Assembly: GCA_902782835.1 (NCBI GenBank)
Contig: CACZOQ010000004.1
Location: 1 to 58,041, forward strand
DNA from: an uncultured Erysipelotrichaceae bacterium
GTDB lineage: Bacteria; Bacillota_I; Bacilli_A; RF39; UBA660
Length of the DNA: 58,041 nucleotides
Direction of reading: 5' to 3'
Positions within the stretch are counted from its first letter, which is position 1. Each line of letters begins with the position of its first letter. The position numbers and the translations under genes are program-made. The notes beneath the pieces are model-generated. The model saw nothing but the letters and a program-made list of their open reading frames with translations. It made no database searches and was not told the origin of the DNA. Below, piece after piece: positions 4,062 through 57,757 of this stretch.

Positions 4062-5375
4062 ATGTTAAAACTAAACCTATTAGAAAAAGAAAAATTTGAT
4101 TCCTTTGTCAAAAATCATAAAACAAAATCTCATTTCTTACAGTCATACTCTTGGGGTGAGTTTTCTAAAATCAAAAAAAATATGACACCATATTATTTAG
4201 GATTAGTAAATGAAGAAAATGAAATCGTTGCAGCCACTCTTCTTTTGCAAAAACATCTACCAATGAACTATAGTTACTTCTATGCTCCAAGAGGCTTTGT
4301 ATTAGATTATAAGAAAAAAGAAATAGTACGCACAATGACAAAGAAAGTAATCGAATTTATAAAAAATAAAAAAGCAATCTTCTTAAAAATAGATCCAGAT
4401 ATTATAATAAAATCTATAAACTATCAAAACGAAGAAACAGATAATGAAGACTATAAAGATATATTTGAAACATTAAAATCTTGTGGTTTTAAACATCAAG
4501 GATTTACTAAAAATTTTGAAACAATGCAACCAAGATATACTTTTCGTATCGATTTAAATCAACCAATAGAAGAAATAGAAAATCACTTTTCAAAAACAAC
4601 AAAACAACGAATTGCTAAAAGTTTAAAATTAGATACAGAAGTTGTAATTGGAACAAAAAAAGATATTCCAGAATTTTACCATTTAATGACACTAACCGAA
4701 AACAGGAAAGATTTTATTTCTTATAATGAAGACTATTACGAGACATTATATGAAATTTTTAATGGAAATGAGAATAGTAAAGCCACTTTATTCTTAGGAA
4801 AAGTACATATATCTAAAACAATCAAAGCATTAGAAAAAAGCTTAAAAGAAATAAACAATCAAATATCAATTCTACCAATTGATAATCTAAGTAAAAGTGC
4901 CAAAGCTAAATTAACAGAATTAACCAAACAAAAAGAAAACATTCAAAAAGACATTGAAAAATATAAAGAATACAAAAAAGAATATGGAAATGATCTAACA
5001 CTAAGTGCTCATATGATTATTGAATATGGAGACAAGGCATGGGTTCTATATGCTGGAAATCATAACATATTAAGTGAAACATATGTAAACTATAATACTT
5101 ATTTTGAACACTTAAAATATTGTAAAGATCGTGGTCTTAAAATATATGATCAATTTGGAACCATTGGTGATTTAAGTGAGAACAATCCTCGATTAGGGCT
5201 ACATGAATTCAAAAAGAAATTCGGTGGAGACTATGTTGAATTTATGGGAGAATGGGATTATGTAACAAATAAAATCATGTATTTTATATTTACTAAATGT
5301 GTACCACTATATCGTAAAATAATTCGTAGGAAAAGCAAAAAGGAGTTAGAACATGAAATTAGTAAATCTGAGTAA
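4062..5375 (+). CDS. FemAB-family peptidoglycan interpeptide-bridge aminoacyltransferase
   Basis: FLQSYSWGEF, FYAPRGFVLDY, FLKIDPD, central coiled-coil insert, C-terminal GLHEFKKKFGG. This is the FemA/FemB/FemX/MurM architecture. Confidence 0.85.
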   Translation: MLKLNLLEKEKFDSFVKNHKTKSHFLQSYSWGEFSKIKKNMTPYYLGLVNEENEIVAATLLLQKHLPMNYSYFYAPRGFVLDYKKKEIVRTMTKKVIEFIKNKKAIFLKIDPDIIIKSINYQNEETDNEDYKDIFETLKSCGFKHQGFTKNFETMQPRYTFRIDLNQPIEEIENHFSKTTKQRIAKSLKLDTEVVIGTKKDIPEFYHLMTLTENRKDFISYNEDYYETLYEIFNGNENSKATLFLGKVHISKTIKALEKSLKEINNQISILPIDNLSKSAKAKLTELTKQKENIQKDIEKYKEYKKEYGNDLTLSAHMIIEYGDKAWVLYAGNHNILSETYVNYNTYFEHLKYCKDRGLKIYDQFGTIGDLSENNPRLGLHEFKKKFGGDYVEFMGEWDYVTNKIMYFIFTKCVPLYRKIIRRKSKKELEHEISKSE

Positions 5376-6642
5376 AAATGAATTTAAAAAATTTGCAGAC
5401 AAACATGAACAAATAACATTTCACCAAACAGAAGAATGGGCAAATCTAAAAAAGAAAAATGGTTGGGATGCATACTATGTTGGTTTAAAAGACAAAAATA
5501 AAATAGTAGCAGGAGCTATGATTTTAGCAAAAACTCTACCAATAATAAAAAAGAAAATGTTTTATTCTCCAAGAGGATTTTTAATTGATTACAAAAACAA
5601 AGATTTATTAAAAGAATTTACAGAAGAAATAAAAGAATTTGCCAAAAAAGAAAAAGCTATTTTTATCAAAATTGATCCTTATGTAGAATATCAAGAAAGA
5701 GATAATAATGGTGATATAGTAGAAGATGGATATCAAAATAAAGATACTGTAGAAAATTTAAAAGAGTTAGGCTATAAATTTTTTGGCTTTAATACAATGC
5801 AAGATACTCTTCAACCAAGATGGATGCATGTAATTGAAATCAATGGTAAAAATGAAGAAGAAGTCCAAAAAGACATGGAATCTAAGACAAGACAAATACT
5901 AAGAAAAAATGAAAAATCCAGCATTAAAACACATGAAATAACAAAAGAAGAATTACCACTATTTAAAAGTATTATGGAACATACTGGAGAAAGACGAGAT
6001 TTTATTGATAGACCATTATCATACTATGAAGCAATGTGGGATAATCTACACGATAGTGGAATACTAAAAATATTAATAGCTGATATTGATTTTAATGAAT
6101 ATGAAAACAATACAAAAAAGGAAATAGAAGAAGTAAAAAAAGCATTAGCAGATCGTATTTATAAACATGATAATAATTTATTGAAAATGAATGAAAAAAA
6201 ATATGAATCAACTAACAAGCAAGATAAAGAATCTATCGAAAGACTAAATAATCAACTAGATAAAATCAAAAAATATAAAGAAGAATATGGAGAAAAAAAG
6301 ACTTTAGGAACAATCTTATTCTTGATATATGGAAACGAAGTATTATCATTATTTGGAGGAACTGACGATAATTTAATGCAATTCCAATCAGCTTATACCG
6401 TTCATTATGCCGGCATAAAATATGCGATTGATCACCATTATAAACGATATAATTTTTATGGAATTACAGGTGACTTTCATAAAGAAAATCCATTATATGG
6501 TCTATTTCTATTTAAAAAAAGTTTTGGAGGACATGTAGTAGAATTAATTGGAGAATATGACTTAATCATTTCTAAGTTTTGGTATAACATATATCAAACA
6601 GCCTTTAAAACATATCATTTTTTAAAGAAAATAAAAAAATAA
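5353..6642 (+). CDS. FemAB-family peptidoglycan interpeptide-bridge aminoacyltransferase (second tandem copy)
   Basis: FHQTEEWANLKK, FYSPRGFLIDY, FIKIDPY, coiled-coil insert, GLFLFKKSFGG. AAGGAG RBS. Overlaps the previous gene by 23 nt. Confidence 0.85.
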   Translation: MKLVNLSKNEFKKFADKHEQITFHQTEEWANLKKKNGWDAYYVGLKDKNKIVAGAMILAKTLPIIKKKMFYSPRGFLIDYKNKDLLKEFTEEIKEFAKKEKAIFIKIDPYVEYQERDNNGDIVEDGYQNKDTVENLKELGYKFFGFNTMQDTLQPRWMHVIEINGKNEEEVQKDMESKTRQILRKNEKSSIKTHEITKEELPLFKSIMEHTGERRDFIDRPLSYYEAMWDNLHDSGILKILIADIDFNEYENNTKKEIEEVKKALADRIYKHDNNLLKMNEKKYESTNKQDKESIERLNNQLDKIKKYKEEYGEKKTLGTILFLIYGNEVLSLFGGTDDNLMQFQSAYTVHYAGIKYAIDHHYKRYNFYGITGDFHKENPLYGLFLFKKSFGGHVVELIGEYDLIISKFWYNIYQTAFKTYHFLKKIKK

Positions 6643-6664
6643 GTGGTTAAAAACCACTTTTTTA
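6641..6664. terminator. bidirectional rho-independent terminator between convergent genes
   Basis: AAGTGGTT-AAA-AACCACTT flanked by A and T runs. Confidence 0.75.
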
Positions 6665-7459
6665 TATACTTTTTGCACCATAAGTATTCCAATAAGAAGA
6701 CTTAGCAGTATTACCTCGATCAATACCTCTACTTTCACTATTATCCGGTATTTCAAAGTCAACCGTCCATTTATAGGCAGCATCATAAGCTCCTTGTTCT
6801 GTATTAGGAACACTCTTAAGAGTATTATAAACTCCTGGATATTCATGCTCCAATTCATAAACTAAATAATCAAGTTGTCCTTCAAGACTATTTACATCTT
6901 TATTATTAGCAGCACAATAATTCTTTAAATTTGTCCAACGACTATTATGCCATTGACATATACCATAAGAAGTACCATTATCACCTAAAGCTGTTGGATC
7001 AAAACCTGATTCATGCTCAATATTAGCTAAAATTCCACAAATAGCAGCATTATTAAATCCTTTGTTAGCTAGATAATTGTAAACTGCATCCTTTGAAGCA
7101 TTACCTGTAGATACATTACTAACTGTTGCCGTCTCAACTTTAGAATTTGCTCCAATACGAAGAACAGCATCACTACCAGCCTTATCACCCTCTTGATAGG
7201 AATTAGCTGTATCTACCAAGTAATCACCTACCGCTGAGAAATCTGAAGTAATATTATTAATCTTTGAATTGGCAGCAGAAAATGCATCCATACAAGAATC
7301 ACAAATTGGACCCATGAATACTGCATCACTATCTAATGTGCTTTGGCAATCAGAAATTGCTGTCTTACTAGAGGCAAAATCAGTATTCAAAGTATTAATA
7401 GAAGAAACGCCATCACTAAAAGCCCCATAATCACTAACTTGAATATTCTCATTACCCAT
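6662..7459 (-). CDS. leaderless protein: WXG100-size helical N-module fused to a phage-tail-lysozyme-like muramidase domain
   Basis: N-terminal 95 aa are nearly identical to those of the gene at 7551-8444. C-terminus has ICGILANIEHESGFDP, YGICQWHNSRWTNL, QLDYLVYELE. No signal peptide. Confidence 0.7.
   Translation of the reverse strand: MGNENIQVSDYGAFSDGVSSINTLNTDFASSKTAISDCQSTLDSDAVFMGPICDSCMDAFSAANSKINNITSDFSAVGDYLVDTANSYQEGDKAGSDAVLRIGANSKVETATVSNVSTGNASKDAVYNYLANKGFNNAAICGILANIEHESGFDPTALGDNGTSYGICQWHNSRWTNLKNYCAANNKDVNSLEGQLDYLVYELEHEYPGVYNTLKSVPNTEQGAYDAAYKWTVDFEIPDNSESRGIDRGNTAKSSYWNTYGAKSI
7193..7429 (-). repeat. copy 1 of the duplicated N-terminal module coding sequence
   Basis: Aligns with 8184-8420 at an offset of 991 nt. 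By eye, about 7 mismatches in the 112 nt nearest the gene 5' ends, more divergent further in. Confidence 0.8.
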
Positions 7460-7518
7460 ACTATCACCATCTTTAAATCTATTGTAGCATCAAATATAAA
7501 GGGGATACAAATAATCTA

Positions 7519-7550
7519 CAAAAAAATTACACAACCTGTAAAGTGTAATT
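7519..7550 (-). terminator. rho-independent terminator after the glucosaminidase-fusion gene
   Basis: Minus strand AATTACAC-loop-GTGTAATT followed by TTTTTT. Directly abuts the stop codon. Confidence 0.7.
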
Positions 7551-8444
7551 TTAAGTATCATATTTTTCCAAACCGTAATTAGAAATAATAGAAGCATATT
7601 TTCCAGTAGTAGTTCTTCCGGCAGGTGGAGGAGTATAAGCCTCCAAGAAAGTAGAATAATCTTGTAAATTGTTGCTACCAACACATTCAGGATGGTAAAT
7701 AGACATAATATCCGTATAATCATCAATACATTCTTCTACACTGTCATAATGACGCATGTCTTCACTTGTAGGAATCGTTCCTGTTTTACTTTCATTTAAT
7801 TGACTAACATTATTCTGACCATATGTTTTTTTCTTAGACCATTCCGATGTCTGACGATCAGTAGATACTCCCATCTCATAGTTAACACCCAAAACATTAT
7901 TATAATTTGAAAGAGAAGAGGCATGCGAACTCATCCATCCACTCTCATTAATAATTTGAGCAATAATTAATGATTTTTTCATACCATGAGTATTCGTATG
8001 ATTCACAATATTGGCAACTTTATCAATCCACTCTTGTTGAGCAGCCTTATCAGAATTATAAGCACGATCACCTAAACTATAAAATGCATTTGCCTGAGTT
8101 GACCCTCCATTTAACGACAAACCAGAATTAGAAGGAAGATTTAATGCTTTTGCAACGGTATTAGAAGCTTGTTTATCATCACTTTGATAAGAATTAGCAG
8201 TTTCCACTAAGTATTCTCCAACAGCAGAAAAATCAGAAGTAATATCATTTATTTTAGAATTAGCAGTGCTAAAAGCCTCCAAACAAGAATCACAGATAGG
8301 GCCCATAAAAACAGCATCACTATCTAATGTGCTTTGACAATCAGAAATTACTGTCTTACTAGAAGCAAAATCAGTATTCAAAGTATTAATAGAAGAAACA
8401 CCATCACTAAAAGCTCCATAATTACCAACTGTTGTATCAGGCAT
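7551..8444 (-). CDS. leaderless protein: WXG100-size helical N-module fused to an N-acetylglucosaminidase (glucosaminidase/FlgJ-type) domain
   Basis: C-terminus has SLIIAQIINESGWMSS, NNVLGV, MRHYDSVEECIDDYTDIM, YASIISNYGLEKY. The N-terminal module is shared with 6662-7459. No signal peptide. Confidence 0.7.
   Translation of the reverse strand: MPDTTVGNYGAFSDGVSSINTLNTDFASSKTVISDCQSTLDSDAVFMGPICDSCLEAFSTANSKINDITSDFSAVGEYLVETANSYQSDDKQASNTVAKALNLPSNSGLSLNGGSTQANAFYSLGDRAYNSDKAAQQEWIDKVANIVNHTNTHGMKKSLIIAQIINESGWMSSHASSLSNYNNVLGVNYEMGVSTDRQTSEWSKKKTYGQNNVSQLNESKTGTIPTSEDMRHYDSVEECIDDYTDIMSIYHPECVGSNNLQDYSTFLEAYTPPPAGRTTTGKYASIISNYGLEKYDT
8184..8420 (-). repeat. copy 2 of the duplicated N-terminal module coding sequence
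   Basis: See 7193-7429. Confidence 0.8.
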
Positions 8445-8482
8445 ATCATCACCATCCTATCTATTAATATTCTATCATAATT

Positions 8483-8506
8483 AAAAAAAAGTGGAAACCA
8501 CTTTTT
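8483..8506 (-). terminator. rho-independent terminator closing the five-gene WXG-like operon
   Basis: Minus strand AAAAGTGG-TTT-CCACTTTT followed by a T run. Confidence 0.75.
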
Positions 8507-8512
8507 AGAAAT

Positions 8513-8824
8513 TTACGCACCTATAGCTTTATTAATAGTACTTTGTCCAGCTTTATCACGTTCTTGTTGATCTTTAACCATCGCTCTAATATAGCTCTCC
8601 AAATTAACTACCTTTTGATGGAAAACATCATATTGTTTACTTAATTCTTGATAATTTTCTCTTGTAATATCTGCCCCTTGACTAATCCAGCCAGTCTCAT
8701 AAATATTATCCATATTGGAATTAATACGCCCAAAAGTGTCAACAATTTCTTCATCAAGACTCTTTATTTCACTAGCAATTTGAATTGCTTCATCATAGTG
8801 ACCTAAACGAATATTACCTGCCAT
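8513..8824 (-). CDS. WXG100-like small helical protein (variant turn GWISQG)
   Basis: 103 aa with a two-helix layout. Its C-terminal DQQERDKAG resembles the end of the duplicated module (YQEGDKAG). Confidence 0.55.
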   Translation of the reverse strand: MAGNIRLGHYDEAIQIASEIKSLDEEIVDTFGRINSNMDNIYETGWISQGADITRENYQELSKQYDVFHQKVVNLESYIRAMVKDQQERDKAGQSTINKAIGA

Positions 8825-8840
8825 AATAAACCTCCTTAAA

Positions 8841-9149
8841 TTAAACTCCTTCTAAATTTCTTGCATCGTGAGCTCTTTCAGCTTCTCCCTCTTCAAACAT
8901 TCCAGCAACCTGAACATTGGCATTACCTAAATCATTCAAAGTACCTTGAAGAGCAGTAAATGATTGTTCCATTGTATTAAATGAGCTACCAAAATCAACA
9001 GCATCATCACCATCCCAGATTGCTAATAACTTATCAACTTTAGATTCCATAGAACTGATTTGTTCACGTAGAGTATCTGAATTTTGAACAATATTGTGTC
9101 CTTCTGAGCTCATATCACTTGTATTTGTTTTAAAATCAACTTGCGCCAT
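8841..9149 (-). CDS. WXG100 family protein (EsxA-like)
   Basis: Canonical central AIWDGDDAVDF (W-x-G), about 100 aa. Start moved to MAQVDF (ATG at 9149), which is preceded by GGAGG. Confidence 0.7.
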   Translation of the reverse strand: MAQVDFKTNTSDMSSEGHNIVQNSDTLREQISSMESKVDKLLAIWDGDDAVDFGSSFNTMEQSFTALQGTLNDLGNANVQVAGMFEEGEAERAHDARNLEGV

Positions 9150-9224
9150 ATATATCCTCCTATCTAATACCAATTATATACTATAAATTTCACATATGAC
9201 AATAAAATGTACATATCTTTACGA

Positions 9225-9512
9225 TTATATACTTAAACTTGACAATTCTTCTTCCAATGATTCAATACTTTGAGCAGCAGATTTTATAAACTCACCTAAT
9301 GAGTTTACATATTCAGCACTAGCCTTTGCTTCTGCTATTTTAGCATTATTAGTTTCAACAAAACTATTCTTAGCTGAACTTGTCCAATTTGACAAATTCC
9401 CTTCAATATTTGATCCATAAGTATTAACACTTGACGTAATATTGGAAGCTTCTTGACATAATTTCTCACCAACAGATGTAACAGTTGCAAAATCACAAAC
9501 ATATTTAGCCAT
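9225..9512 (-). CDS. WXG100-like small helical protein (turn NWTSSA)
   Basis: About 95 aa, helical, Ser/Ala/Asn rich. Start taken at MAKYV with AGGAG upstream. It abuts the stop of the upstream gene. Confidence 0.5.
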   Translation of the reverse strand: MAKYVCDFATVTSVGEKLCQEASNITSSVNTYGSNIEGNLSNWTSSAKNSFVETNNAKIAEAKASAEYVNSLGEFIKSAAQSIESLEEELSSLSI

Positions 9513-9513
9513 A

Positions 9514-10584
9514 TTAAACATTTTCTCCTTTCTCATTATTATCTATAGATTCATCAGAGTCTGTTTTACTACCCGATTCTTGTGAAGTATCAACCGTCTC
9601 CTCAGAAGAGGATTGATCATCACTAGGGCTCTTTTCAGTACCAGATTTCTGATTACTAGCGGACTCTTCATCAGCAGGCACACCATTATCTTCTGCCATA
9701 ACTGTCTTTTGATCAGATTCCGGTTCTTTTACTTTTTTATAATTACCTTTGTTTTCAATTTCAGAAACATCTTTTAATAAATGATCACATACATCTTTCT
9801 TTTTTAATTCTTTATAATTTTTATCCACTAAGAAACCAATTGCTTCTTTATTTTCCTCAGATACTGTGGAAATACCAATAACACAAGAAACAATAGTTCC
9901 ATCCTTATGAATAAAATCAATAACATCTCCAACATTACCTATAGAAGAATCGCAAGCAATCACAAAACGATTTCCAATCATCGCATAACCATCTTTATAA
10001 GTAACAGATTTCATAAGTTTTTTAGAATCATCACTTAATTTATCCGATTTTGGTGATGCATAATAAACATCCGATAATTTTGCTTTTACTTTACCTTTTT
10101 TATTTTTCTTTTCCTTGTCATCTTCATCTTCCTTTTCTTTCTCTTTTATACCAGGAGAAGGAGTAATATAGGAACTTCCACCACCACTATAGCCACCAGA
10201 GTAACCACCTGAATAACAACCGCCAGTATAGCCACCACCAGTAGGAGCACCTAAATTACTACTATCAGGGGTACCAGTTTCATTGCTAGTTGGAGTGCTG
10301 CTAGCTTCTTTTCCTGTTGCAACGTCAACTTTCAACTGATTCTGAAGATCCGTATGAGAAGATACAACTTTTTCCATAATACTTGCCGTATTATGAACTT
10401 TAGTAGAACAAGCATCAATATTTTGAGCAATAATATTTTTAGCCGTTGCAAAATCAAAACCATCTTCACAAGCAGTATCATATCCATTAACCGAACTACT
10501 TAAAGAAGTAATTTGCGAAACTATCGAATCAATAGATGATGCTGAAGAAGATACAGCATCGCATTCTAACATAAATACTGCCAT
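9514..10584 (-). CDS. leaderless modular protein: helical N-module, GGYSGG low-complexity linker, unassigned globular domain, acidic Ser-rich tail
   Basis: N-terminus SSASSIDSIVSQITSLSSSVNGYDTACEDGFDFATAKN..HTDLQNQL. Linker GGGYTGGCYSGGYSGGYSGGGSS. Domain GNRFVIACDSSIGNVGDVIDFIHKDGTIVSCVIGIS. AGGAGG RBS. Confidence 0.6.
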   Translation of the reverse strand: MAVFMLECDAVSSSASSIDSIVSQITSLSSSVNGYDTACEDGFDFATAKNIIAQNIDACSTKVHNTASIMEKVVSSHTDLQNQLKVDVATGKEASSTPTSNETGTPDSSNLGAPTGGGYTGGCYSGGYSGGYSGGGSSYITPSPGIKEKEKEDEDDKEKKNKKGKVKAKLSDVYYASPKSDKLSDDSKKLMKSVTYKDGYAMIGNRFVIACDSSIGNVGDVIDFIHKDGTIVSCVIGISTVSEENKEAIGFLVDKNYKELKKKDVCDHLLKDVSEIENKGNYKKVKEPESDQKTVMAEDNGVPADEESASNQKSGTEKSPSDDQSSSEETVDTSQESGSKTDSDESIDNNEKGENV

Positions 10585-10593
10585 ACATACCTC

Positions 10594-11511
10594 CTAAGCA
10601 TTTTTACCTACATAACGTAAATATCCATCCCATCCACCATTGTGGAAATTTTCATAATCATTAACGTTAATTTCTTGCCCTCCAGGATCCCCATCGTTAG
10701 ACCCACCACTCCAATTATCATGAGCACCAACCTTTTTACCATCACCAACATACATTTCAACATGATGAGCTAAATTAACTAAAATATCTCCCGGTTCTAG
10801 TTCATCAACATTAGGAGTTCCTTCATGCCATTCAAATCCAAAAGGCAAATAATTATTAACCATAGAAGCATTATTCGTATAATATTTTACATCTCCTAAA
10901 GGAACCCCAGCATTTTCATATGCTTGATTGATAAGGGAAGAACAATCAAACCCATGGTTTCCTAATTGAGGATATCCTCCACTCTCATATCCATAAGAGT
11001 CATCCGCTGCAATCTTAAGTGCCCATTCAACAGCTTTTTGAGCAACTTCATTACTAGAAGTTTTAAGAACTGCTCCATTACGAACATCACCACTTAATGA
11101 AATAGCGGACAAAGTAGCTGCCGAAGCAGAAGCTAAATTAGACTCAATTTGAGATTTCAAATCAGTTAATTGTTTATCATATAAAGAAATATCAGAATTA
11201 TATTTTTGAATATTAGCAGAATCATTATTAGAAACAGCTTGATTGTACAAAGATCTTGCCTGTGACAAAGAAGTCTTTACATTTTTATAATCCTCATATA
11301 AATCACAAGCAGCAGCAAAAGAATCCATTTCTCCTTGAATTGTACTTAAGTATTCTGATAAAAATTCTTCACTCTTAGATAATAAATTATCATGAGATGA
11401 TCCTGTCCAAGAAGATGATAACCCATTAATCTCATTCGAATAACGATCCAAAGCTTCTTTCAAAGAATTAAAATCACTTTGAACAGCGCTACCAGCTACC
11501 ATAGGCATCAT
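10594..11511 (-). CDS. leaderless protein: WXG-like helical N-domain fused to an NlpC/P60 cysteine peptidase domain
   Basis: N-terminus LSSSWTGSSHDNL (W-x-G turn) within about 140 aa of helices. C-terminus GNHGFDCSSLINQAYENAGVPL and PGDILVNLAHHVEMYVGDGKKVGAH. The true start may be the third ATG (11502). Confidence 0.7.
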   Translation of the reverse strand: MMPMVAGSAVQSDFNSLKEALDRYSNEINGLSSSWTGSSHDNLLSKSEEFLSEYLSTIQGEMDSFAAACDLYEDYKNVKTSLSQARSLYNQAVSNNDSANIQKYNSDISLYDKQLTDLKSQIESNLASASAATLSAISLSGDVRNGAVLKTSSNEVAQKAVEWALKIAADDSYGYESGGYPQLGNHGFDCSSLINQAYENAGVPLGDVKYYTNNASMVNNYLPFGFEWHEGTPNVDELEPGDILVNLAHHVEMYVGDGKKVGAHDNWSGGSNDGDPGGQEINVNDYENFHNGGWDGYLRYVGKNA

Positions 11512-13333: not shown

Positions 13334-13357
13334 AAAAAAGCTTAAAAAGCTTTTTTA
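13334..13357 (-). terminator. rho-independent terminator after the L,D-transpeptidase gene
   Basis: AAAAAAGCTT-AAA-AAGCTTTTTT palindrome. Confidence 0.7.
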
Positions 13358-14803
13358 CCATGGATTATTACTATCCTCATCTGTTGGATCCCAACCTCGA
13401 TTAGGACTATTTCCATCAATTTTAGTAAAACCAGGTTTAGAAATTTCAGATGGTAAATCTCCATCATATATCTTAACAGTAGTTCCAGCAGGACAATGAT
13501 TAAATATCCATCTAGCATCTCGAACCGTTAAACGTACACATCCCATAGAAGCTTGTGTTCCCAGTTTATTATATTCTTCCCATTCTAAATCACCTTTGTT
13601 TTTACTAAAATATGGTACCGAATGAAATAATATATCACTAACAATTCTAGTCGTATATTGTCCCCAAACACCACCATATAATAATCCCCAAGTAGTTCCT
13701 TTTGTAGTTTGAAAAGTTCCAACAGGGGTTGCATTACCAGCCCCCGTAGAACAAATAAAAGATTTAATTACTTCTGTATATTCTCCATTTTCATCCAAGC
13801 CATAAACAACAACGACATTTTGGTTTCGTATTACATGAATAATATAAGGTTTCTGATTTACTTTCGCAATAACTTTAATAGAAATAGTTTTCTCACTCAT
13901 ATTACCATTCTTATCTTTAGCAGTAACTTTAATAGGATAGGTCCCCACACTACTTTTATTATAAGAACCATCTAATACACAATCAACTTCACCATCAACT
14001 AAATCCTCACAATGAACTTTTTGAGAAAGATTCACTTCATTATTAACATAGATTGTAATATCATTTGCAGTAATAATAGGCCCATCTTTATCATCCACTA
14101 ATTGAAAAGAAATATTCTTTTTAGAATTAGATATTTCAATCATACAGAATTCATCATAAATACTACGTTTTTGAAATTCAACTTTATGATCAGATAAACG
14201 CCAGGTATCAAAATGATTTTTTAAAAACTCTAAAACCATAATATCTTTGTCAATAAGATTCATATGATTAGTAATAGTATTTAAATATTTCTTTAATAAT
14301 GAATAATTAACCTTCTTTAAAAGAGAATCATATTCTTTTTTATGTTTGAAATCAATAAATTGATTCTGAGTTTTCTTTTTTAATAATACTTCTAAAGATT
14401 CTTTTTCCTTACTTAATTGTCTATTCTCTTCCTGCAACGTCTCTATACTTTTTTGAATTTTAGAAACATCATCTAACTCTTCTTCAGAAAACACAATATT
14501 AGACGTATTTTTTTCAATAATTGTATTAGAAACATTATAAGTAGAAATAATTTCTTTTAAATATTGGTTTAATCCTTTTTCCAATTTTTTTAAATGGGTT
14601 TCTTTTTGTTTTATTGTCTTTTCCACATCAATATATTTACAATCAGAAGATAGAAAACGATTTACAAGAATTACTTTATTATCTAACTTTTGATATTCTA
14701 TTTTATTTCGTATGAGAGGAAATAAAAACAAAATTACAGCAACCAAAAAAACGCCTAATAATAAGAAAAATATTTTCTTTTTCATTCTATCATCTACTTT
14801 CAT
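13355..14803 (-). CDS. membrane-anchored L,D-transpeptidase (YkuD domain) with coiled-coil and Ig-like domain
   Basis: C-terminus HSVPYF..ASMGCVRLTVRDARWIF (His..Ser-x-Gly-Cys-x-Arg catalytic signature). Ig-like segment GTYPIKVTAKDKNGNMSEKTISIKV. N-terminal TM helix. Confidence 0.8.
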   Translation of the reverse strand: MKVDDRMKKKIFFLLLGVFLVAVILFLFPLIRNKIEYQKLDNKVILVNRFLSSDCKYIDVEKTIKQKETHLKKLEKGLNQYLKEIISTYNVSNTIIEKNTSNIVFSEEELDDVSKIQKSIETLQEENRQLSKEKESLEVLLKKKTQNQFIDFKHKKEYDSLLKKVNYSLLKKYLNTITNHMNLIDKDIMVLEFLKNHFDTWRLSDHKVEFQKRSIYDEFCMIEISNSKKNISFQLVDDKDGPIITANDITIYVNNEVNLSQKVHCEDLVDGEVDCVLDGSYNKSSVGTYPIKVTAKDKNGNMSEKTISIKVIAKVNQKPYIIHVIRNQNVVVVYGLDENGEYTEVIKSFICSTGAGNATPVGTFQTTKGTTWGLLYGGVWGQYTTRIVSDILFHSVPYFSKNKGDLEWEEYNKLGTQASMGCVRLTVRDARWIFNHCPAGTTVKIYDGDLPSEISKPGFTKIDGNSPNRGWDPTDEDSNNPW

Positions 14804-14824: not shown

Positions 14825-15811
14825 CTAAGATTTAGGATTATCATTTTTTTTCAGATAACTATTACCATGAACTTGTAATTCATTATTTCTTTTTCGAACA
14901 CGATCATTAATATCTAACTCAATAATTGAATCACAGATTTTATAACGATAAAATGCTTTGATTGCGCTATAATCGCCTTCCCCTATCGCTAAATTCATGG
15001 CAGTGTGATATTCTGTTCTTTCCATGGCTTTAACATAGATAGGTGGTAAACCCGCATCTTCAAGTAGCTTATTAATAAAAGCTCTCACTGTTCGACCATT
15101 CCCATCTGGAAATGGATGAATCCAAATGAGTTGACATTTTAATTCTACACATCTATCTAAATATTTTAATAAAGCATCTACATCTCCCAATAGTCGAATC
15201 TCTTTAGCCACTTTATGTAATTGGTCAACATCATGACGAAGCGCAAACATTTCCCTCTCAACCATATAAGATTCACATAGATTTAAACCAGTTCCCGGTA
15301 AGAAACGTTGATCTGTTCGGTAATACCCTGCACACTCTGGATGAGGAGCATGAGAATATAATTTTTTATGTAATTCTTTTAAAGAATAAATTGAAAAATA
15401 TTCTTCAAACTCTTCTGAATGAAGATACTCATACATATCTAATAAACCTTCTATTTCCACTTTACCATGAATATCCTCATCATTAACTCCTTCAAGTTGA
15501 CTTTCATTTTTCACATATTTAGAAACAAAAGATTTTTTAAACTTATCAAAGTCTTCATTAGTCGGTTTTAAACTATAATAAAAACGAATTAAATCAGTTG
15601 GAATATGACCATCTTTTTCATATAATTTTCCCTTTTGTTTACGATACTTATAACCCAAAAAAGATTCTAATAATATATCCGGAATATTTACTCCGCTTTC
15701 AAGCAAATCAACATAAGCCTTTCTAATACGAGCTGTTCTCTCTTGAATAGAATCTGGATCGTCCTGAACTTCAATACTATATCGGCAACCATTACTGCTT
15801 ATATAATCCAT
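14825..15811 (-). CDS. Fic-family protein (AMPylase-type motif)
   Basis: Canonical HPFPDGNGRTVRAF. Start moved to MDYISSNG (ATG at 15811), which is preceded by AAGGGGG. Confidence 0.8.
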   Translation of the reverse strand: MDYISSNGCRYSIEVQDDPDSIQERTARIRKAYVDLLESGVNIPDILLESFLGYKYRKQKGKLYEKDGHIPTDLIRFYYSLKPTNEDFDKFKKSFVSKYVKNESQLEGVNDEDIHGKVEIEGLLDMYEYLHSEEFEEYFSIYSLKELHKKLYSHAPHPECAGYYRTDQRFLPGTGLNLCESYMVEREMFALRHDVDQLHKVAKEIRLLGDVDALLKYLDRCVELKCQLIWIHPFPDGNGRTVRAFINKLLEDAGLPPIYVKAMERTEYHTAMNLAIGEGDYSAIKAFYRYKICDSIIELDINDRVRKRNNELQVHGNSYLKKNDNPKS

Positions 15812-15863
15812 CAATACTACCCCCTTTAAATTGCCTAAATTATAACACAAAATTAAAAAAAAG

Positions 15864-28550: not shown

Positions 28551-30035
28551 ATGATGGCTCCATTAAGAAAAAAAGGAGGGAGAATTATCAAAAAGATAAG
28601 TATTTTCTTAATAACAATAATTGGCTTATTACTTTGTATCAATGTAAAAGCTGAAACCGTCAATTTTTATGAGGCAGAATATATAGATGGAATCTATATC
28701 AATAAGTATAATGCATTTAAAAATACGATTGATTATCAAAAAGCAAGATTTTTCCGAAGAAGTGACACCAATGAATTTGCCTATTGTATTGAACCATTCA
28801 ATTATTTCAGGGCTGGATATGAACATGAAATAACAAATTTTCCTAATAATGCAAATCCAGAAAGAATAGATAGAATTCGTAAACTTGCCCATTTTGGTTA
28901 TGGCTATCAAAACCATACAGATGCAAAATGGTATGCAATAACACAAGTACTAATCTGGGAAACAGCAGAACCAGAAGGAGATTATTATTTCACACAAGGA
29001 ATCGTAGGGGAAAGAATAAATCCCTATCAAGCTGAAATAGATGAAATAAATTATTTGATAGAAGAATACTCGAAAATGCCAAGTTTTGCCAATCAAACGT
29101 TTTATACAGTAGAAGGTCAAGATTTTATACTTACAGATACCAATAACAGTATTCAATCATTCACAACAAATGATCCAGTAAGCAGAATAAATAATCAATT
29201 AAAATGGACGAATACAAAAGCAGGAAATTATCATTATACATTTCAAAAAGAAGACACATTTTATAACAAACCATTATTATTCTATCAATCTGATAATACT
29301 CAAAACCTAGTTACAACAGGTGATATAGAAAGTATTCATTTCGAATTCAATATCAAAGTCATCCAAACAAGTCTAGAAATAACAAAAATCGATAAAGATA
29401 CGAAATCCATTACACCAAGAGGAGAAGCAAAACTAGATGGAGCAATCTATGAATTATTAGATTCCAATAAAAAAGTAATACAAGAAATAACAATTGAAAA
29501 TAATCAAGTAATCTTAAACAATCTAAATTTTGGAAAATACTATATAAAAGAAAAAAAACCTGGAATAGGATATACTCTAGATACAAATGAATATGAAATA
29601 ACAATCACAAAAGAAAAACCAACGATTGAACTCATCTTAGAAAACAAAGTAATAGAAAAGAAAATAAGAGTAGAAAAAAAATATGGAGAAGACAATAATT
29701 TTCAAAAAGAAACAAATATTATATTCCATATTCTTAATCAAAATAATGAATTTGTTCTAGAAGCCACAACAAATGAAGAAGGATTTTTTGAAATTCAATT
29801 ACCATATGGAACCTATCAATTAATTCAAATCAATACAACAGATGGTTACCAAAAAATAGATGACTATCAAATCATTGTCAGTAATACAGAAGATGAATTA
29901 ATTGAATTAAAAGATCTAAAAATACCAATTCCTAATACTCATAAAGATAAACAAAAATCCACAATGCCACTATCGATTCTATATCCAATACTAATAGGAA
30001 TACTATGGAAAAGAAAATTATCTATGGAGTTTTAA
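28551..30035 (+). CDS. surface adhesin with Cys-Gln thioester (TQXA-type) domain and two CnaB/SpaA-like domains; atypical sorting signal
   Basis: Signal peptide ..LLLCINVKA-ETV. FAYCIEPF (thioester Cys) and AITQVLIWE (Gln). LEITKIDKDT..GKYYIKEKKPGIGY and EGFFEIQLPYGTYQLIQ folds. C-terminus IPNTH (29928-29942) plus a hydrophobic stretch plus WKRK. The start codon is uncertain. Confidence 0.7.
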   Translation: MMAPLRKKGGRIIKKISIFLITIIGLLLCINVKAETVNFYEAEYIDGIYINKYNAFKNTIDYQKARFFRRSDTNEFAYCIEPFNYFRAGYEHEITNFPNNANPERIDRIRKLAHFGYGYQNHTDAKWYAITQVLIWETAEPEGDYYFTQGIVGERINPYQAEIDEINYLIEEYSKMPSFANQTFYTVEGQDFILTDTNNSIQSFTTNDPVSRINNQLKWTNTKAGNYHYTFQKEDTFYNKPLLFYQSDNTQNLVTTGDIESIHFEFNIKVIQTSLEITKIDKDTKSITPRGEAKLDGAIYELLDSNKKVIQEITIENNQVILNNLNFGKYYIKEKKPGIGYTLDTNEYEITITKEKPTIELILENKVIEKKIRVEKKYGEDNNFQKETNIIFHILNQNNEFVLEATTNEEGFFEIQLPYGTYQLIQINTTDGYQKIDDYQIIVSNTEDELIELKDLKIPIPNTHKDKQKSTMPLSILYPILIGILWKRKLSMEF

Positions 30036-30514
30036 TCTTTCTATGGATACTAACCATCCCAACAAGTATAATCAAAATCGAAAACAAACAACAACCCGTA
30101 GAAAAAAAAGAATCAGGAGAGAGAATTGGCACTATTATTATCGAAAAAATACAGCTGAACGAGCCATTATACAAAATAAACAGTTCAAAAAATAATATTG
30201 AAGAACACGTAACAATATTAAAAGAATCTACTCCACCAACTGAAGACAATAGTATTATGATTCTAGCAGCACACTCAGGTGATGACAAAATATCCTATTT
30301 TGAATATCTGGATCAAATAGAAATAGGAGATACCATTCATTTAATATATCAACAAAAAAAATATAGTTATCAAGTAAAAGAAATATGGGAAGAAATAAAA
30401 AATGGTTTTATACATATCAACAAAGAAAAGGGAAAACAACTTGTCCTAACAACATGTAGCCCCAACAAAGAAAAATGGCAACTCATAATAAATTGTACAG
30501 AAAAAGGAGTCTAA
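30005..30514 (+). CDS. small sortase-family transpeptidase
   Basis: N-terminal TM helix, ILAAHSG (His), QLVLTTCSP (Cys). Overlaps the adhesin gene by 31 nt. Confidence 0.7.
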   Translation: MEKKIIYGVLIFLWILTIPTSIIKIENKQQPVEKKESGERIGTIIIEKIQLNEPLYKINSSKNNIEEHVTILKESTPPTEDNSIMILAAHSGDDKISYFEYLDQIEIGDTIHLIYQQKKYSYQVKEIWEEIKNGFIHINKEKGKQLVLTTCSPNKEKWQLIINCTEKGV

Positions 30515-41461: not shown

Positions 41462-44400
41462 TTAACGTAATATAAAATAGAAAAACAGCCCAGCCAATAA
41501 AGTACCAATCAACAATAAAATACCCGTTTGAACACTAAAATAACCATGACTAGGATTTTCATTTGCATTTTTTTTCTGATAAGCAACTCCTTTTTCATTT
41601 GAATGATTATCTACATTTTTTTGAATACTCATAGATGCCAATTGATCTTGTGCCTTTCTCTTTTTTTCGGGATCCTTCTGATAATTCTCTTCCGTCATTA
41701 ACTTCATAGCCCGAACAACATCTTGTCCATTTTGACAATCATATTCACCTAATCTAGAAACAAAAGAGGAAGCATCTTTTTTTAATTGATTTTTTTTCTC
41801 AACAACAGTTCTAGTCTGACCGACCGAATCACGAATTCTGGTTAACAAGAATTTTTTTTCTTGGAAAGATAGTTTTGAATCATTATCAATCTGATCCAAT
41901 TGTTCTTGTATATGCTCATCAGCTACCTTTTTTGCATCTTCCATTACACCAAATTTTTCCTGTAAAACTTCACTGATCTCTTCTACTGAAGAATCACCTA
42001 ACGAAGACACAACAATACCAGTATAAAGAGAAATTAATTCTGCTTCATCACAAAAACTATTCTTTTTTGTGTTGCGATACATTTCTTGTAATTTTCTATT
42101 TTTCTTTCTCTCTGCCACAACATCATAAGAATCAGAAACAATATGAAGAGGATACAAAGAAGAAGTCATAGTACGCCAAGCAGAATAACTATCAAATGAA
42201 GCAGGATGATGAGCATCCACTCCAAACATCACAGGACATCCTACCTCAGAAGCTATAGATAAAAACATAGAAGAAGGATAAGGGATGTCTCCTTTTTTTG
42301 CCTCTTCACCTAATAAAGCCCCAAAATTAACTTCTACTGGAATTCCTAACTCTTTGGATTTTTCACAAATCATTCGTAACCCTTTTTCAGCATTTTGTAA
42401 ATATTCCTCCCTATTTTCATCAGAAACCATTTTAAGATATTTAAAGAAAAGATCCGGATGTGCAACAATATCAAATATCCCAGTATCCATTCCTTGACAC
42501 ACCATTTCTGCATATTGAATAGGGTAACTAGGATCTTTAAAAGAAACATGACTAAAACCAGAATTCACAAAGTGCTGACCCAAAATCATATAATCAACTT
42601 GGTCTCTAAGTTGAACTAAATAATCCAATTGTGTAGGAACAAACTCAGCTTCAAATCCACAACTAATTTGCATATCAGAATATTGTTTTTGAAGTTTACG
42701 AATATGATCTAAATAAATACTAGCTTCATCATTTCTCATACGTGAAGTTAACACAGGTAATTCAAAGGGAGATGATGGCACATGATCAGAAAAACCTAAT
42801 TTTGTAAAACCATTATTATGAGCACTTTCAATATATTGATCATCCGTAAAAGTAGATGCATGTCCGCAAAGATTCGTATGAGTATGGTAATTAAAATAGG
42901 TCTTAGCATCAGCACCCTTAGAAGTCATATCATCTCTATAATAACCACCATAGAAAGTAGTAATAGGTTCTTTCTGATTCTCAATTCTTATTTTATTTTC
43001 TAAACTAACTCTAAAGTTTTGACAATCTGTTTTACTCCAAATAGTGAATCCACGAATATTACACTCATCCCTTAATGATTCAACAACATCATATACTTCA
43101 GCCATCTTTTTCTGACGTTTCTCCTGGATTTGTTCAGAAGATAATTTAGAATCCATATCTGTCATTGCTAAATCAAATTCTGTAATTTCAATTGGTAACT
43201 CAAAACTACTTAAGCTTTGAAACATCCGCTCCATCTGCTCACGAGTACAAGAATAATCAATATGCATTTGTGTACCAATGCTATCAATTAAGCGAATATC
43301 ATGTTCCTTTTCATAAGCATGAATTTTATCAATAATTTGTTTATTAGCCTTTACTTTTTGAAAATCAATCAAATGATCATCATTATACATAAAATCAACA
43401 TGAGGAAGATTTTTTCTTGCTTGAGCAATAACGTCACATAAATCTTCAACTGACAAGTGCTTTAACCAACCACTCTTTATATTATCAGAAGGGTCTTCAC
43501 CTTGCTCAATATCACCCCTATATTGATAAGGAACATCTCCTTTCATAGGGAAACGATTCAATAATTCATTAAACACATCAACACTACGTACTGTAGCTGG
43601 ATATTTTGCTAAAACTTTAGTGGTTTCATCAACATAACGTAATAATTCTTTTTTTACGATATCATGATTCTTCGGTGTTTTATCTAATTGATACAAAACT
43701 TCCGGACAATCCATATAAAACAGCAATGTATTAATTCGAACAGTCTTGCCTAACCCTTCTGCAAACTTTAAACATTTTTCCAAATGTCTAAAATCACATT
43801 CACCATTTGCTAAAACAATCTTTCCTTGTTTTCCTTCTTCATCAAGGGTAATAGAATTATATTTATGTAAAATCATATCATATAATCTACGATACATGTC
43901 GATAGTAGAACTTTTAATACCTGATTTTTCAACAGGAGAGCAATCACGTAAAACATGACATATTCTAGAAATTTGTTCTGGAGAAAAATAGTCCTGTAAA
44001 TGGGAAAACGTCGGAGAAGGAGAGTTTAATAAATTCAATAATTGTTTTTTCTCTTCTATTGTAAGATCATCAGAAGATAACAAATAATCAATCTTTTTTC
44101 TTAATTCTAAAGAAGGTTCTTGAAAATAATCATTTTTGCCTATTTTTTGATCTAAATATAAATCAAATACCGAAGATACATACTTTTCAAAAGTTATTCC
44201 CCCAGGTAATGAATCCGGTATTTCTAAAGGACATCCAGTAATAGATTGAAAAACATCTCTTAGTTCATCTAAAGACTTAGAATTTGCTATAAAAAGTAAA
44301 TCAATATCCTGTTCATTTAAAGTAATTCCTTGATAATTAAGAGGAATTTCTTCTATTCTTTTCTTTTTTTCTTCAAATAAACATTCAAAAAAATCATCTA

Positions 44401-44557
44401 TATCAGGACGTAAGTCCTCCTCATCAGAAGTAGGAGAAAAATAAGAAGCTAAATATGCAGCTAATTGTTCAAAAGTAACGTTAATTCCTTTATCTTGAAA
44501 ACGCATAACCCAACCTATAATATAATCTTGATATTCTAGTATTTTTTCCTTTGACAT
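41462..44557 (-). CDS. 1031-aa tail-anchored multidomain protein: unknown N-domain, GH10-like TIM barrel, PHP (histidinol-phosphatase-type) domain, C-terminal TM helix
   Basis: GH10-like signposts VDVFNELLN, FMYNDDHL, IDSIGTQMHID, EITEFDLAM. PHP motifs NYHTHTNLCGHAS, GFSDHVP, VAHPDLF, GVDAHHP. C-terminus GILLLIGTLLAGLFFYFILR. No N-terminal signal peptide. Confidence 0.6.
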   Translation of the reverse strand: MSKEKILEYQDYIIGWVMRFQDKGINVTFEQLAAYLASYFSPTSDEEDLRPDIDDFFECLFEEKKKRIEEIPLNYQGITLNEQDIDLLFIANSKSLDELRDVFQSITGCPLEIPDSLPGGITFEKYVSSVFDLYLDQKIGKNDYFQEPSLELRKKIDYLLSSDDLTIEEKKQLLNLLNSPSPTFSHLQDYFSPEQISRICHVLRDCSPVEKSGIKSSTIDMYRRLYDMILHKYNSITLDEEGKQGKIVLANGECDFRHLEKCLKFAEGLGKTVRINTLLFYMDCPEVLYQLDKTPKNHDIVKKELLRYVDETTKVLAKYPATVRSVDVFNELLNRFPMKGDVPYQYRGDIEQGEDPSDNIKSGWLKHLSVEDLCDVIAQARKNLPHVDFMYNDDHLIDFQKVKANKQIIDKIHAYEKEHDIRLIDSIGTQMHIDYSCTREQMERMFQSLSSFELPIEITEFDLAMTDMDSKLSSEQIQEKRQKKMAEVYDVVESLRDECNIRGFTIWSKTDCQNFRVSLENKIRIENQKEPITTFYGGYYRDDMTSKGADAKTYFNYHTHTNLCGHASTFTDDQYIESAHNNGFTKLGFSDHVPSSPFELPVLTSRMRNDEASIYLDHIRKLQKQYSDMQISCGFEAEFVPTQLDYLVQLRDQVDYMILGQHFVNSGFSHVSFKDPSYPIQYAEMVCQGMDTGIFDIVAHPDLFFKYLKMVSDENREEYLQNAEKGLRMICEKSKELGIPVEVNFGALLGEEAKKGDIPYPSSMFLSIASEVGCPVMFGVDAHHPASFDSYSAWRTMTSSLYPLHIVSDSYDVVAERKKNRKLQEMYRNTKKNSFCDEAELISLYTGIVVSSLGDSSVEEISEVLQEKFGVMEDAKKVADEHIQEQLDQIDNDSKLSFQEKKFLLTRIRDSVGQTRTVVEKKNQLKKDASSFVSRLGEYDCQNGQDVVRAMKLMTEENYQKDPEKKRKAQDQLASMSIQKNVDNHSNEKGVAYQKKNANENPSHGYFSVQTGILLLIGTLLAGLFFYFILR

Positions 44558-56515: not shown

Positions 56516-57757
56516 ATGAAAATAGTCAAACTTAGTTCCTCACAATTTGATAGATTTGCATCAACACATAGATATCGAAATTTCTATCAAAGTTCTATGT
56601 ATGCAAACGTAATGACAAAATTTGGATATCGCGCCCAATTTCTAGGTGTAGTAAATGATCAAAACAAACTCATTGGAGCTACCTTAATTATTTATAAAGA
56701 AGTTTTTATGGGAAATAAAATTGCTTATGCCCCAAGAGGAATCCTTTTTGATTATGAAAATGCAGAAAATACAGAAAAACTTGTACGTAAATTAAAAAAA
56801 GTATTAGGAAAGCAAGGCTTTATTCTATTAAGAATAGATCCTTATATTCCATTAACAATCCGAGATGCTGAAGGAAACATTATGAACTTCAACAACAAAG
56901 GAAATACAATTACAGATAATTTAAAAAATGCAGGATTTGAATATAAAGGAAAAACAAACAATTTTGAAACAGAAAAACCTCGTTGGGAAGCTTTAGTTCT
57001 TTTACAAAGAGACATTCGAGAGATATTTGCTAAGCTAGATAAAAGGACAAGAAATAAAATTAGAAGAGCAACGAATAGTGGTGTTGAAGTAGTAAAAGAT
57101 ATCAATAGAGATGTTACAGCACTATATAATTTTGTTGGAAAAAAAGATAGAAAACCATTAGCTTTTTATAAGGAAATATGCGAAAAATATGAAAGCAATG
57201 CAGAAATATATTATGCTAAAATCAATACAGAAACTTTTTTAATTAATAGTAGAAGAAGCTATGAAAAAGAAGTAGAATATAATACTTCTTTAGCAAATAG
57301 AGTACAGGATATGTCTCTAGAAGAAAAAGATAGAAATTCATACTTAAATAAAAAAATGGAATCAGATAAATTAATCACAGCATATAAAAATAGTCTTTTA
57401 AGAGCAACCGACTTATTAAAAAGCAATCCGGATGGAATTATTATTGCAGGAGCATTAGTTATCAAATACGATAACGCTGCATATATATTTACTGAAGGTG
57501 GAGATGATGATTACGCATATTTAAATGCTAATTATTTAATAAAATGGCAATTAATTAATGACTATAATAATCAAGGTCTAAAATACTTAAACTTAGACGG
57601 AATTTCAGGAGATGTTGAAAAAGCGAATGAATATAATAGTTTAAACGAATCTAAAGTTGGATTTAATGTAACGATTACAGAATATATAGGAGAATTTGAT
57701 ATCGTATTAAATAACTTTGCCTTTAACTGGTATAAAAAAATGAATAAGAATAAATAA
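56516..57757 (+). CDS. FemAB-family peptidoglycan interpeptide-bridge aminoacyltransferase (third copy)
   Basis: FYQSSMYANV, AYAPRGILFDY, LLRIDPY, coiled-coil insert, LNESKVGFN. Confidence 0.8.
   Translation: MKIVKLSSSQFDRFASTHRYRNFYQSSMYANVMTKFGYRAQFLGVVNDQNKLIGATLIIYKEVFMGNKIAYAPRGILFDYENAENTEKLVRKLKKVLGKQGFILLRIDPYIPLTIRDAEGNIMNFNNKGNTITDNLKNAGFEYKGKTNNFETEKPRWEALVLLQRDIREIFAKLDKRTRNKIRRATNSGVEVVKDINRDVTALYNFVGKKDRKPLAFYKEICEKYESNAEIYYAKINTETFLINSRRSYEKEVEYNTSLANRVQDMSLEEKDRNSYLNKKMESDKLITAYKNSLLRATDLLKSNPDGIIIAGALVIKYDNAAYIFTEGGDDDYAYLNANYLIKWQLINDYNNQGLKYLNLDGISGDVEKANEYNSLNESKVGFNVTITEYIGEFDIVLNNFAFNWYKKMNKNK

Follow-up and report, generated by a model that had tools for sequence, protein, structure and literature searches.

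The known cargo of type VIIb secretion in Bacillota consists mainly of WXG100 proteins and LXG toxins. Apart from the accessory enzyme EssH and unlinked CHAP proteins, two recent reviews (one of them PMC10765036) mention no peptidoglycan hydrolases, and they leave open how substrates and machine deal with the thick cell wall. Here we examine a 58-kb stretch of chromosomal DNA (hereafter the window; 30% G+C, Bacillota-type genome) from contig CACZOQ010000004.1 of an uncultured Erysipelotrichaceae bacterium (assembly GCA_902782835.1), in which two adjacent genes, A and B, code for proteins that share a helical N-terminal module, termed N1, joined to different catalytic domains, or heads. Taken as a whole, the evidence is probably best explained by a type VII-style export module, fused to peptidoglycan hydrolases, whose copies gene conversion has kept alike.

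Among the described systems, the LXG toxins of type VIIb (TelA-D of Streptococcus intermedius, with Lap1/Lap2) resemble the products of A and B in their Sec-less helical N-terminal targeting domain and in a variable C-terminal enzymatic domain exchanged by recombination, as well as in the adjacent genes for small helical WXG100-like partners and the Y/F-x-x-x-D export motif (PMC9600955). Unlike the LXG domain of ~200 amino acids (aa), N1 is a single hairpin of ~95 aa, and PF04740 (LXG) matched neither A nor B nor the N2- and N3-class proteins of the same cluster (Table 1); the export motif lies on the N1 enzyme itself instead of on the Lap1 partner, and the N1 cassettes have neither immunity genes nor orphan cassettes and carry almost only wall enzymes as heads. 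The EsxA/EsxB (ESAT-6/CFP-10) heterodimers are comparable in size, in their helix-turn-helix fold and in the clustering of small paralogues, and bear a Y-x-x-x-D arm on one partner and W-x-G on the other; the bipartite type VII signal is made up of Y-x-x-x-D/E and the W-x-G of the partner, and LXG toxins need F-x-x-x-D for their export (PMC9600955). In contrast to these heterodimers, N1 is fused to a catalytic domain of 150-200 aa, has an F-x-G-P turn and falls below Pfam and TIGRFAM thresholds.

Envelope-degrading cargo is also represented by EatA/TapA1/TapA2/EatI of Mycobacterium abscessus, a GH183 arabinanase toxin secreted through ESX-4, in which an envelope glycan hydrolase is carried on a helical type VII N-terminal domain with small helical accessory genes upstream (PMC13444075). 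That system is an actinobacterial one (type VIIa, T7SSa) with a longer N-terminal domain and an adjacent lipoprotein inhibitor, whereas the N1 genes belong to Bacillota and have no inhibitor gene. The architecture of N1 proteins also matches that of the WXG-fused toxins included in a comparative survey (PMC3482391). The modular autolysins of Gram-positive bacteria, composed of a Sec signal, LysM, SH3 or other wall-binding repeats and a GH73, CHAP or NlpC/P60 domain, possess the same catalytic heads, domain shuffling is usual among them, and the closest relatives of the gene B head include such proteins (P0025, P0026, P0047); they differ in having a signal peptide and a wall-binding domain where the N1 proteins have a helical hairpin of cytoplasmic type. 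Finally, Staphylococcus aureus EssH hydrolyses peptidoglycan through a CHAP domain and has a functional connection with type VIIb secretion. It is an accessory enzyme with Sec-type export, encoded beside the ess core genes, and is not known to be a WXG-fused substrate or to be modular.

By their domain content, the products of both genes are peptidoglycan hydrolases that cleave glycan: A codes for a lysozyme-type muramidase and B for a GH73 N-acetylglucosaminidase. Residues 124-256 of A match PF18013 (Phage_lysozyme2) with 123.2 bits (cut-off 28.2, E = 1.2e-35), covering model positions 4-137 of 140, and the head of B matches PF01832 (Glucosaminidase) with 51.6 bits (cut-off 30.2, E = 1.9e-13). 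The AlphaFold2 model of B (mean predicted local distance difference test score, pLDDT, of 86.5) is composed of a hairpin (residues 10-100), a disordered linker (101-117) and the head (118-297), the latter retrieving Listeria Auto (3fi7, 5.5e-6), Enterococcus AtlA (7qfu, 1.1e-4) and FlgJ (5dn5) in Foldseek searches. The same head was found elsewhere on at least five other N-termini (Sec signal with LysM, Sec signal with SH3, and other helical modules). A Kyte-Doolittle scan detected no hydrophobic signal segment in A, B or the N2- and N3-class proteins, the maximum over 15 residues being 1.1-1.3 in A and B (1.13 in A) versus 2.7-3.4 in the conventionally exported wall enzymes of the window.

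The initial annotation had described the N-terminal modules of both genes as close copies, and this was borne out. The pairing of 7193-7429 with 8184-8420 proposed there was correct and forms part of an ungapped block in which A 7429..7175 pairs with B 8420..8166 at a constant offset of 991 nucleotides (nt), starting at the shared YGAFSD and including 44 differences in 255 nt over 85 codons (82.7% identity). At the protein level, A and B matched each other within the window at E = 2.6e-47 (tblastn, 85% identity over 89 aa). Seven of the differences fall in the first 111 nt, in agreement with the earlier estimate by eye of about seven in 112, and 31 in the next 129 nt (Fisher p = 1.6e-4). The reported drop in identity further in proved to be a sharp step, placed by a maximum chi-square scan at nt 107 (~7323 in A, ~8314 in B; 5/107 vs 33/133, permutation p ~0.001), and silent differences in codons for the same amino acid rise from 6/36 in the first part to 20/36 in the second. 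The first 8-10 codons of the two genes are divergent, with indels, and the ~25 nt 5' of the start codons are similar again, including the GGTGAT ribosome-binding site. Beyond the Y-Q-x-x-D-K junction the genes show ~50% global nucleotide identity and are unrelated (PF18013 vs PF01832), as had been stated. We infer two layers of conversion in the window, an older one over the whole module and a younger one over ~107 nt, the high-identity tracts of Table 1 representing the most recent event.

A comparison across related genomes was based on the syntenic site LeuRS-Fic-MurJ ... FemAB-FemAB-TrmB in the window and in loci L004, L007, L010, L011 and L013. The flanks are conserved, with protein identities to the window of 84-85% for LeuRS (shared region), 59-66% for the MurJ-like protein, 78-84% for FemAB and 65-71% for the TrmB-like protein, and the number of N1 genes and the types of heads differ. 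The site is occupied in the window by N2, N3, three small WXG genes, N1-GH73 and N1-lysozyme, in L004 by three N1 genes, in L007 by two, in L011 by one with a CHAP head, and in L013 by one with a divergent GH73 head. Instead of one gene pair diverging evenly along its length, the relatives carry different sets, and the explanation by recombination therefore stands. Furthermore, N1 copies group by genome and heads by enzyme type: the N1 modules of A and B share 88% core identity and at most 46% with any N1 in other genomes, while the head of A is 73% identical to the lysozyme head of L006, the head of B 63% to the GH73 head of L004, and MurJ 64%. Two N1 genes located on different contigs of the metagenome-assembled genome (MAG) RUG12858 are likewise each other's nearest relatives.

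A second syntenic site, comprising uvrB, WXG-a and then N1 genes, provided a direct view of the process in two near-identical strains, L006 and L021. Their flanks are 99.8-100% identical and their heads 99.3-100%; gene 1 differs at 22 positions, all within nt 69-271, and 21 of these have in L006 the nucleotide found in gene 3 of that strain. The difference between the strains is a gene-conversion tract confined to the N1 module. Together with the many head families found on N1, these comparisons show that N1 is a portable module whose copies have been repeatedly homogenised within a genome by gene conversion, and that heads have been gained, lost and exchanged at the linker after Y-x-x-x-D; the recombination-driven head swapping on a constant module, and the gene conversion, put forward in the initial annotation are thereby upheld.

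What that annotation did not identify was the delivery module as a WXG100-like hairpin located within a WXG100 gene cluster. Modelled alone, N1 of gene B yields two helices (10-46 and 48-100) with a pLDDT of 86.6. F46, G48, P49 and Y86 are invariant in 28 N1 sequences, with F12, D52 and D90 nearly so; among 81 full-length members of the family D90 is invariant and Y86, F46, G48 and P49 nearly so. The turn reads F-[ML]-G-P, and Y-x-x-x-D lies near the end of helix 2, just ahead of the disordered linker (F-M-G-P and S-Y-Q-E-G-D in A). By hhalign, N1 is closest to the family of WXG-c, a small gene from its own cluster, with which it aligns over the full length (92% probability, E = 6.3e-7), and as far as sequence profiles indicate N1 derives from the WXG-c type only. 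Relatives of N1 also gave matches below threshold to WXG100 (5/81, the best at 3e-5; 7e-4 in L012) and to T7SS_ESX_EspC (6/81). The EsxA:EsxB pair 4lws was both the top Foldseek match of N1 and its sole PDB sequence match other than coiled coils (E = 0.076), both matches being weak; the remaining PDB matches of the N1 profile, mostly coronavirus spike HR1 and other coiled coils, were set aside as compositional noise. We conclude that N1 is a divergent hairpin of the WXG100/ESAT-6 kind fused to enzymes. As a separate observation, most N1 modules have one or two cysteines just past the turn, forming C-x-x-C in A and B (G-P-I-C-D-S-C); in the WXG-a family one Cys, within an N-terminal K-[YF]-V-C-D motif, is invariant. 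These residues might link the partners by a disulfide or bind a metal between them.

An exhaustive profile search of 1.84 billion representative proteins (threshold E <= 1e-3) recovered the N1 family as 248 representative clusters, with N1 at residues ~1-100 in all of them and protein lengths of either ~100 aa (stand-alone) or 240-380 aa. The family occurs in MAGs of uncultured Bacilli, Bacillales and Erysipelotrichaceae recovered from rumen and from goat and rabbit gut, and the stretches analysed had 24-33% G+C. When the 81 full-length members were scanned against Pfam, the heads recognised were NlpC/P60 (12), Phage_lysozyme2 (11), Glucosaminidase (9), CHAP (8), Peptidase_C39_2 (7), M23 (3), Amidase_5 (3), M15_4 (2), Hydrolase_2 (2), and NAGPA, GDSL and esterases or alpha/beta hydrolases (a few each). 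Nearly all of these are cell-wall or envelope enzymes, and the scan revealed no nuclease, deaminase, NADase or pore former among the 81 proteins. Contig L005 (1-9243) is nearly full of helical-module genes (N1, two N2, two N3, two WXG-a, WXG-b and WXG-c), including a stand-alone N1-like gene of 100 aa at 7791-8093. In a different lineage, L015 (GCA_900089715.1) and L017 contain WXG100 genes clustered with CHAP and GH73 hydrolases, and the tandem genes L015 10001-10969 and 10984-11946 possess a common helical module of ~115 aa (MDY[ED]IN...) with different heads; the principle of a common module with different heads therefore recurs in a second lineage with an unrelated module.

In the mechanism that we propose, N1 would pair with a small WXG100-like neighbour protein, most likely WXG-a, and the resulting four-helix bundle would carry the bipartite type VII signal. 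Export of the complex would fall to an EssC-type ATPase encoded at a different place in the genome, the exported head would cut the glycan strands of the wall, and the homogenisation of N1 within a genome would reflect the need to match a common partner or receptor. WXG-a is the best candidate for the partner; it is directly upstream of N1 genes in eight loci (L005, L006, L009, L011, L021, L023, L024 and L026), has an invariant Trp at its turn (W-x-G turn) and lacks Y-x-x-x-D.

Several observations weigh against this explanation. The main gap is the apparatus itself, since no EssC, EsaA or EssB gene was found in the window or in ~0.4 Mb of related loci. Pfam detected no FtsK/SpoIIIE domain in any large open reading frame (ORF) near the N1 genes (these code for UvrA, UvrB, IF-2, PNPase, HtpG and P-type ATPases), the only matches to a Walker-A pattern in the loci analysed were UvrA and one ABC ATPase, the flanks of two more distant hydrolase clusters were also without type VII apparatus, and a literature search on Erysipelotrichaceae with EssC gave nothing useful. 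As no apparatus gene was found, the proposed dependence on type VII secretion draws on resemblance and on the neighbouring genes. The resemblance itself is incomplete: neither the 28- nor the 81-sequence alignment includes a Trp or a W-x-G motif at the N1 turn, which has F-x-G-P instead, the Foldseek matches of the hairpin are individually non-significant (E >= 0.09), and no Pfam or NCBIfam model matches the N1 region of A or B. WXG-a is assigned as partner by adjacency only, and hhalign found no relationship of N1 with the WXG-a or WXG-b families; homology with WXG-a is not expected, because a partner need not be homologous. Regarding conversion, the direction of the 5' step in the window has no closely related genome to show it, nor did a metagenome scan provide a relative close enough to date the tract (best N1 match 46%). 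Lastly, N1 copy number and head type vary among close relatives (three genes in L004, two in L007), a pattern that fits accessory or conflict genes better than housekeeping ones, and most of the known type VIIb cargo is antagonistic; both points bear on the role of the enzymes in the organism's own wall.

As to this role, the chances are about even that A and B are wall-remodelling enzymes of the organism itself, exported by the type VII route, and not weapons. We lean towards this self-wall role because there is no immunity gene beside the cassettes, the surroundings are devoted to wall synthesis, the heads have diverged in an ordinary manner and their repertoire is that of normal autolysins. 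No immunity-like ORF accompanies the cassettes in the window, where the intergenic gaps of 9-91 nt contain no ORF, and no consistent downstream gene was identified in about 20 related loci, the genes downstream of solitary N1 genes (polytopic membrane proteins, RbfA, a zinc-ribbon protein) having been rejected as immunity genes or conserved partners since they are mutually unrelated. Orphan head cassettes were also sought in the window, and a tblastn search with both modules and both heads matched only A and B. The comparison with polymorphic toxin loci made in the initial annotation is consequently retained for the architecture and given up for the rest: without immunity genes or orphan cassettes this is not a classical polymorphic-toxin locus, and the heads are nearly all wall or envelope enzymes. 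A wider proposal, to be taken as tentative, is that an uncultured lineage of Bacilli of low G+C content from gut and rumen may have shifted a large part of its housekeeping autolysins (muramidase, glucosaminidase, several endopeptidases) from Sec signals to type VII export via short genome-specific WXG100-type hairpins, which would co-evolve with a small partner and be kept matched to it by gene conversion.

The alternative that A and B are antibacterial type VII effectors, i.e. wall-degrading weapons on a polymorphic-toxin-like chassis that would lyse competitors and whose producers would be protected by their own wall chemistry and not by dedicated immunity proteins, seems to us rather unlikely. 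It shares all the evidence for the export module and accommodates the differences in head content and copy number among related genomes, the fast and concerted evolution of the delivery modules and the lytic phage-type heads (Phage_lysozyme2, ELLD, Amidase_5). Antagonism between bacteria is the best-documented role of type VIIb secretion (PMC10765036), and EatA is a known type VII-secreted wall glycanase toxin, with NlpC/P60 heads among the predicted actinobacterial type VII toxins (PMC13444075). The array also abuts two FemAB genes, which recalls FemAB-like self-protection. Producers of lysostaphin and zoocin A protect themselves in this way, by the FemAB-like Lif/Epr and Zif. The FemAB genes of our locus are, however, conserved like housekeeping genes, at 79-84%, an altered cross-bridge would give no protection from the heads of A and B, which cleave glycan, and the position of the locus among wall-synthesis genes is conserved. 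TelC/TipC and EatA/EatI are adjacent pairs, for which the cassettes of about 20 loci offer no counterpart; a weapon would also be at odds with the lack of orphan heads in the window and of any cytoplasm-acting toxin domain among the 81 family members.

Two further alternatives question the recombination or the export function. A helical hairpin is a common structure with weak fold matches, the PDB sequence search was dominated by coiled-coil noise, several heads are of phage endolysin type and no type VII apparatus was seen, so that N1 might act as a coiled-coil pro-domain for oligomerisation, tethering or inhibition, attached to phage-derived or lysis-released lysins that leave the cell by another route. 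This we consider improbable: the module is specifically homologous to a WXG100-like gene of its own cluster, bears Y-x-x-x-D at the expected place, always co-occurs with small WXG100-type genes and exists as stand-alone proteins of ~100 aa, as expected of a WXG100-type unit. A phage origin of N1 was rejected, as no relative was found in 2.9 million viral contigs and the locus is chromosomal and syntenic, phage genes being absent from the window. A simple old tandem duplication, in which purifying selection alone maintained the N-terminal likeness without recombination or module exchange, is already contradicted by the data and merits hardly any credence. The strong conservation of F12, F46, G48, P49, Y86 and D90 does place the module under selection, but purifying selection does not keep synonymous sites, and it is at these that the differences step from 6/36 to 20/36 at the breakpoint (p ~0.001). 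The heads have unrelated folds, and whole-gene duplication therefore cannot explain the A/B pair; moreover, the N1 of A is far closer to that of B (88%) than to the N1 of head-orthologues (at most 46%, with heads at 63-73%), and a conversion tract was seen directly in the strain pair L006/L021.

The features of the locus are listed in Table 1. Genes A and B are directly downstream of WXG-a, WXG-b and WXG-c, with the N3- and N2-class genes further upstream, and the cluster is surrounded by murJ/spoVB-like, L,D-transpeptidase and femAB genes. The separate terminators that the initial annotation assigned to A and B were supported in part: the one after A is clear, and the hairpin after B is plausible but weak, the pattern scan having made no call because the loop is 10 nt. 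An own promoter and terminator for each N1 gene is peculiar to the window, the N1 genes of relatives being ~10-15 nt apart.

Table 1. Features of the hydrolase cluster in the window (positions in nt of the window)
Feature	Position	Strand	Basis
Gene A: N1 module, linker and Phage_lysozyme2 (muramidase-type) head, 265 aa	6662..7459	-	ORF, Pfam
Gene B: N1 module, disordered linker and GH73 glucosaminidase head, 297 aa	7551..8444	-	ORF, Pfam, AlphaFold2, Foldseek
N1 module of gene A, codons 1-97 (ungapped core 7175-7429)	7169..7459	-	Alignment with gene B
N1 module of gene B, codons 1-95 (core 8166-8420)	8160..8444	-	Alignment, AlphaFold2, hhalign
High-identity tract, gene A (5 differences in 107 nt vs gene B)	7323..7429	-	Maximum chi-square breakpoint, silent-site contrast
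High-identity tract, gene B counterpart	8314..8420	-	Same breakpoint analysis
Bidirectional terminator hairpin between gene A and convergent FemAB gene	6641..6659	both	Scan call; -8.3 kcal/mol, z = -2.9
Weak intrinsic-terminator candidate after gene B	7523..7552	-	10-bp stem, 10-nt loop, U7; -8.1 kcal/mol, z = -1.8
TGCTACAAT, extended -10-like element 5' of gene A	7481..7489	-	Consensus resemblance only
GGTGAT ribosome-binding site of gene A	7463-7468	-	Read from sequence
Promoter-like site 5' of gene B: TTTCCA, 17 nt, TG-n-TAGAAT	8469..8497	-	Consensus resemblance only
GGTGAT ribosome-binding site of gene B	8448-8453	-	Read from sequence
WXG-c: small WXG100-like gene, 103 aa, closest relative of N1	8513..8824	-	hhalign 92%; Pfam WXG100 E = 0.0013 and NF035934 E = 2.3e-7, neither reaching cut-off
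Terminator 3' of WXG-c	8486-8506	-	Scan, fold energy
WXG-b: EsxA-type WXG100 gene, W-D-G motif	8841..9173	-	Profile matches above cut-offs: PF06013 40.9 bits (cut-off 27.3), TIGR03930 46.8 bits (cut-off 44.85)
WXG-a: small WXG100-like gene, candidate heterodimer partner of N1	9225..9536	-	PF06013 E = 3.5e-4, below cut-off
N3-class protein, 356 aa: different helical N-module, G/S/Y-rich linker, C-terminal domain without Pfam match	9514..10584	-	
N2-class protein, 305 aa: longer helical N-domain with W-T-G, NlpC/P60-ELLD endopeptidase head	10594..11511	-	Pfam ELLD E = 2e-10, NLPC_P60 E = 9.1e-7

The N2- and N3-class proteins are likewise of hydrolase type and have no signal, and both module classes recur on varying heads in related loci. 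The N3 linker is low-complexity sequence of the GGYSGGYSGGYS type, its C-terminal tail is acidic and rich in Ser and Glu, and its stop codon overlaps the start of WXG-a by 23 nt, an overlap also present in L011 and L013. An L,D-transpeptidase (YkuD) gene (13355-14803, minus strand) separates the Fic gene from the MurJ-like gene in the window and is missing at this site in the syntenic L004, L007, L011 and L013. The Fic/DOC-domain gene itself (14825-15850, minus strand) adjoins LeuRS, a position kept in L004 and L007 with a very divergent sequence (27-43% identity). In L013 (1594-4401) the LeuRS ORF has 935 aa compared with 803 aa, the extra ~120-130 residues near position 385 being a candidate insertion, intein-like element or assembly artefact. 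FemAB-family genes occur at 4062-5375, 5353-6642 and 56516-57757, the first two overlapping by 23 nt and being convergent with the hydrolase array, and L004 and L007 have a single FemAB gene at the corresponding site. Besides these three FemAB genes, the genes of the window include LeuRS, FTHFS, SmpB, SecG, RNase R, PFL and a MurD-like ligase. Elsewhere in the window, a 1031-aa ORF (41462-44557, minus strand) combines glycosyl hydrolase family 10 and PHP phosphoesterase domains, an unusual pairing, and a gene for a surface protein with a thioester domain (TED) and SpaA fold (28551-30514, plus strand) precedes a sortase gene, the two making up a small pilin or adhesin unit.

In the absence of a Pfam or NCBIfam model for N1, proteins of this family are annotated by their heads only and would be predicted to be cytoplasmic. 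The family offers a compact and clear natural case in which gene conversion homogenises a secretion module while the cargo domains are exchanged, one conversion event being caught between two near-identical strains. A minimal WXG100-type hairpin joined to essentially every class of peptidoglycan hydrolase, without immunity genes and in wall-synthesis surroundings, would make the N1 family novel either as a class of type VII cargo or as a kind of wall-degrading weapon. If the export of autolysins by this route holds true, type VII secretion would constitute a general route for wall-remodelling enzymes, beyond toxins and virulence factors.

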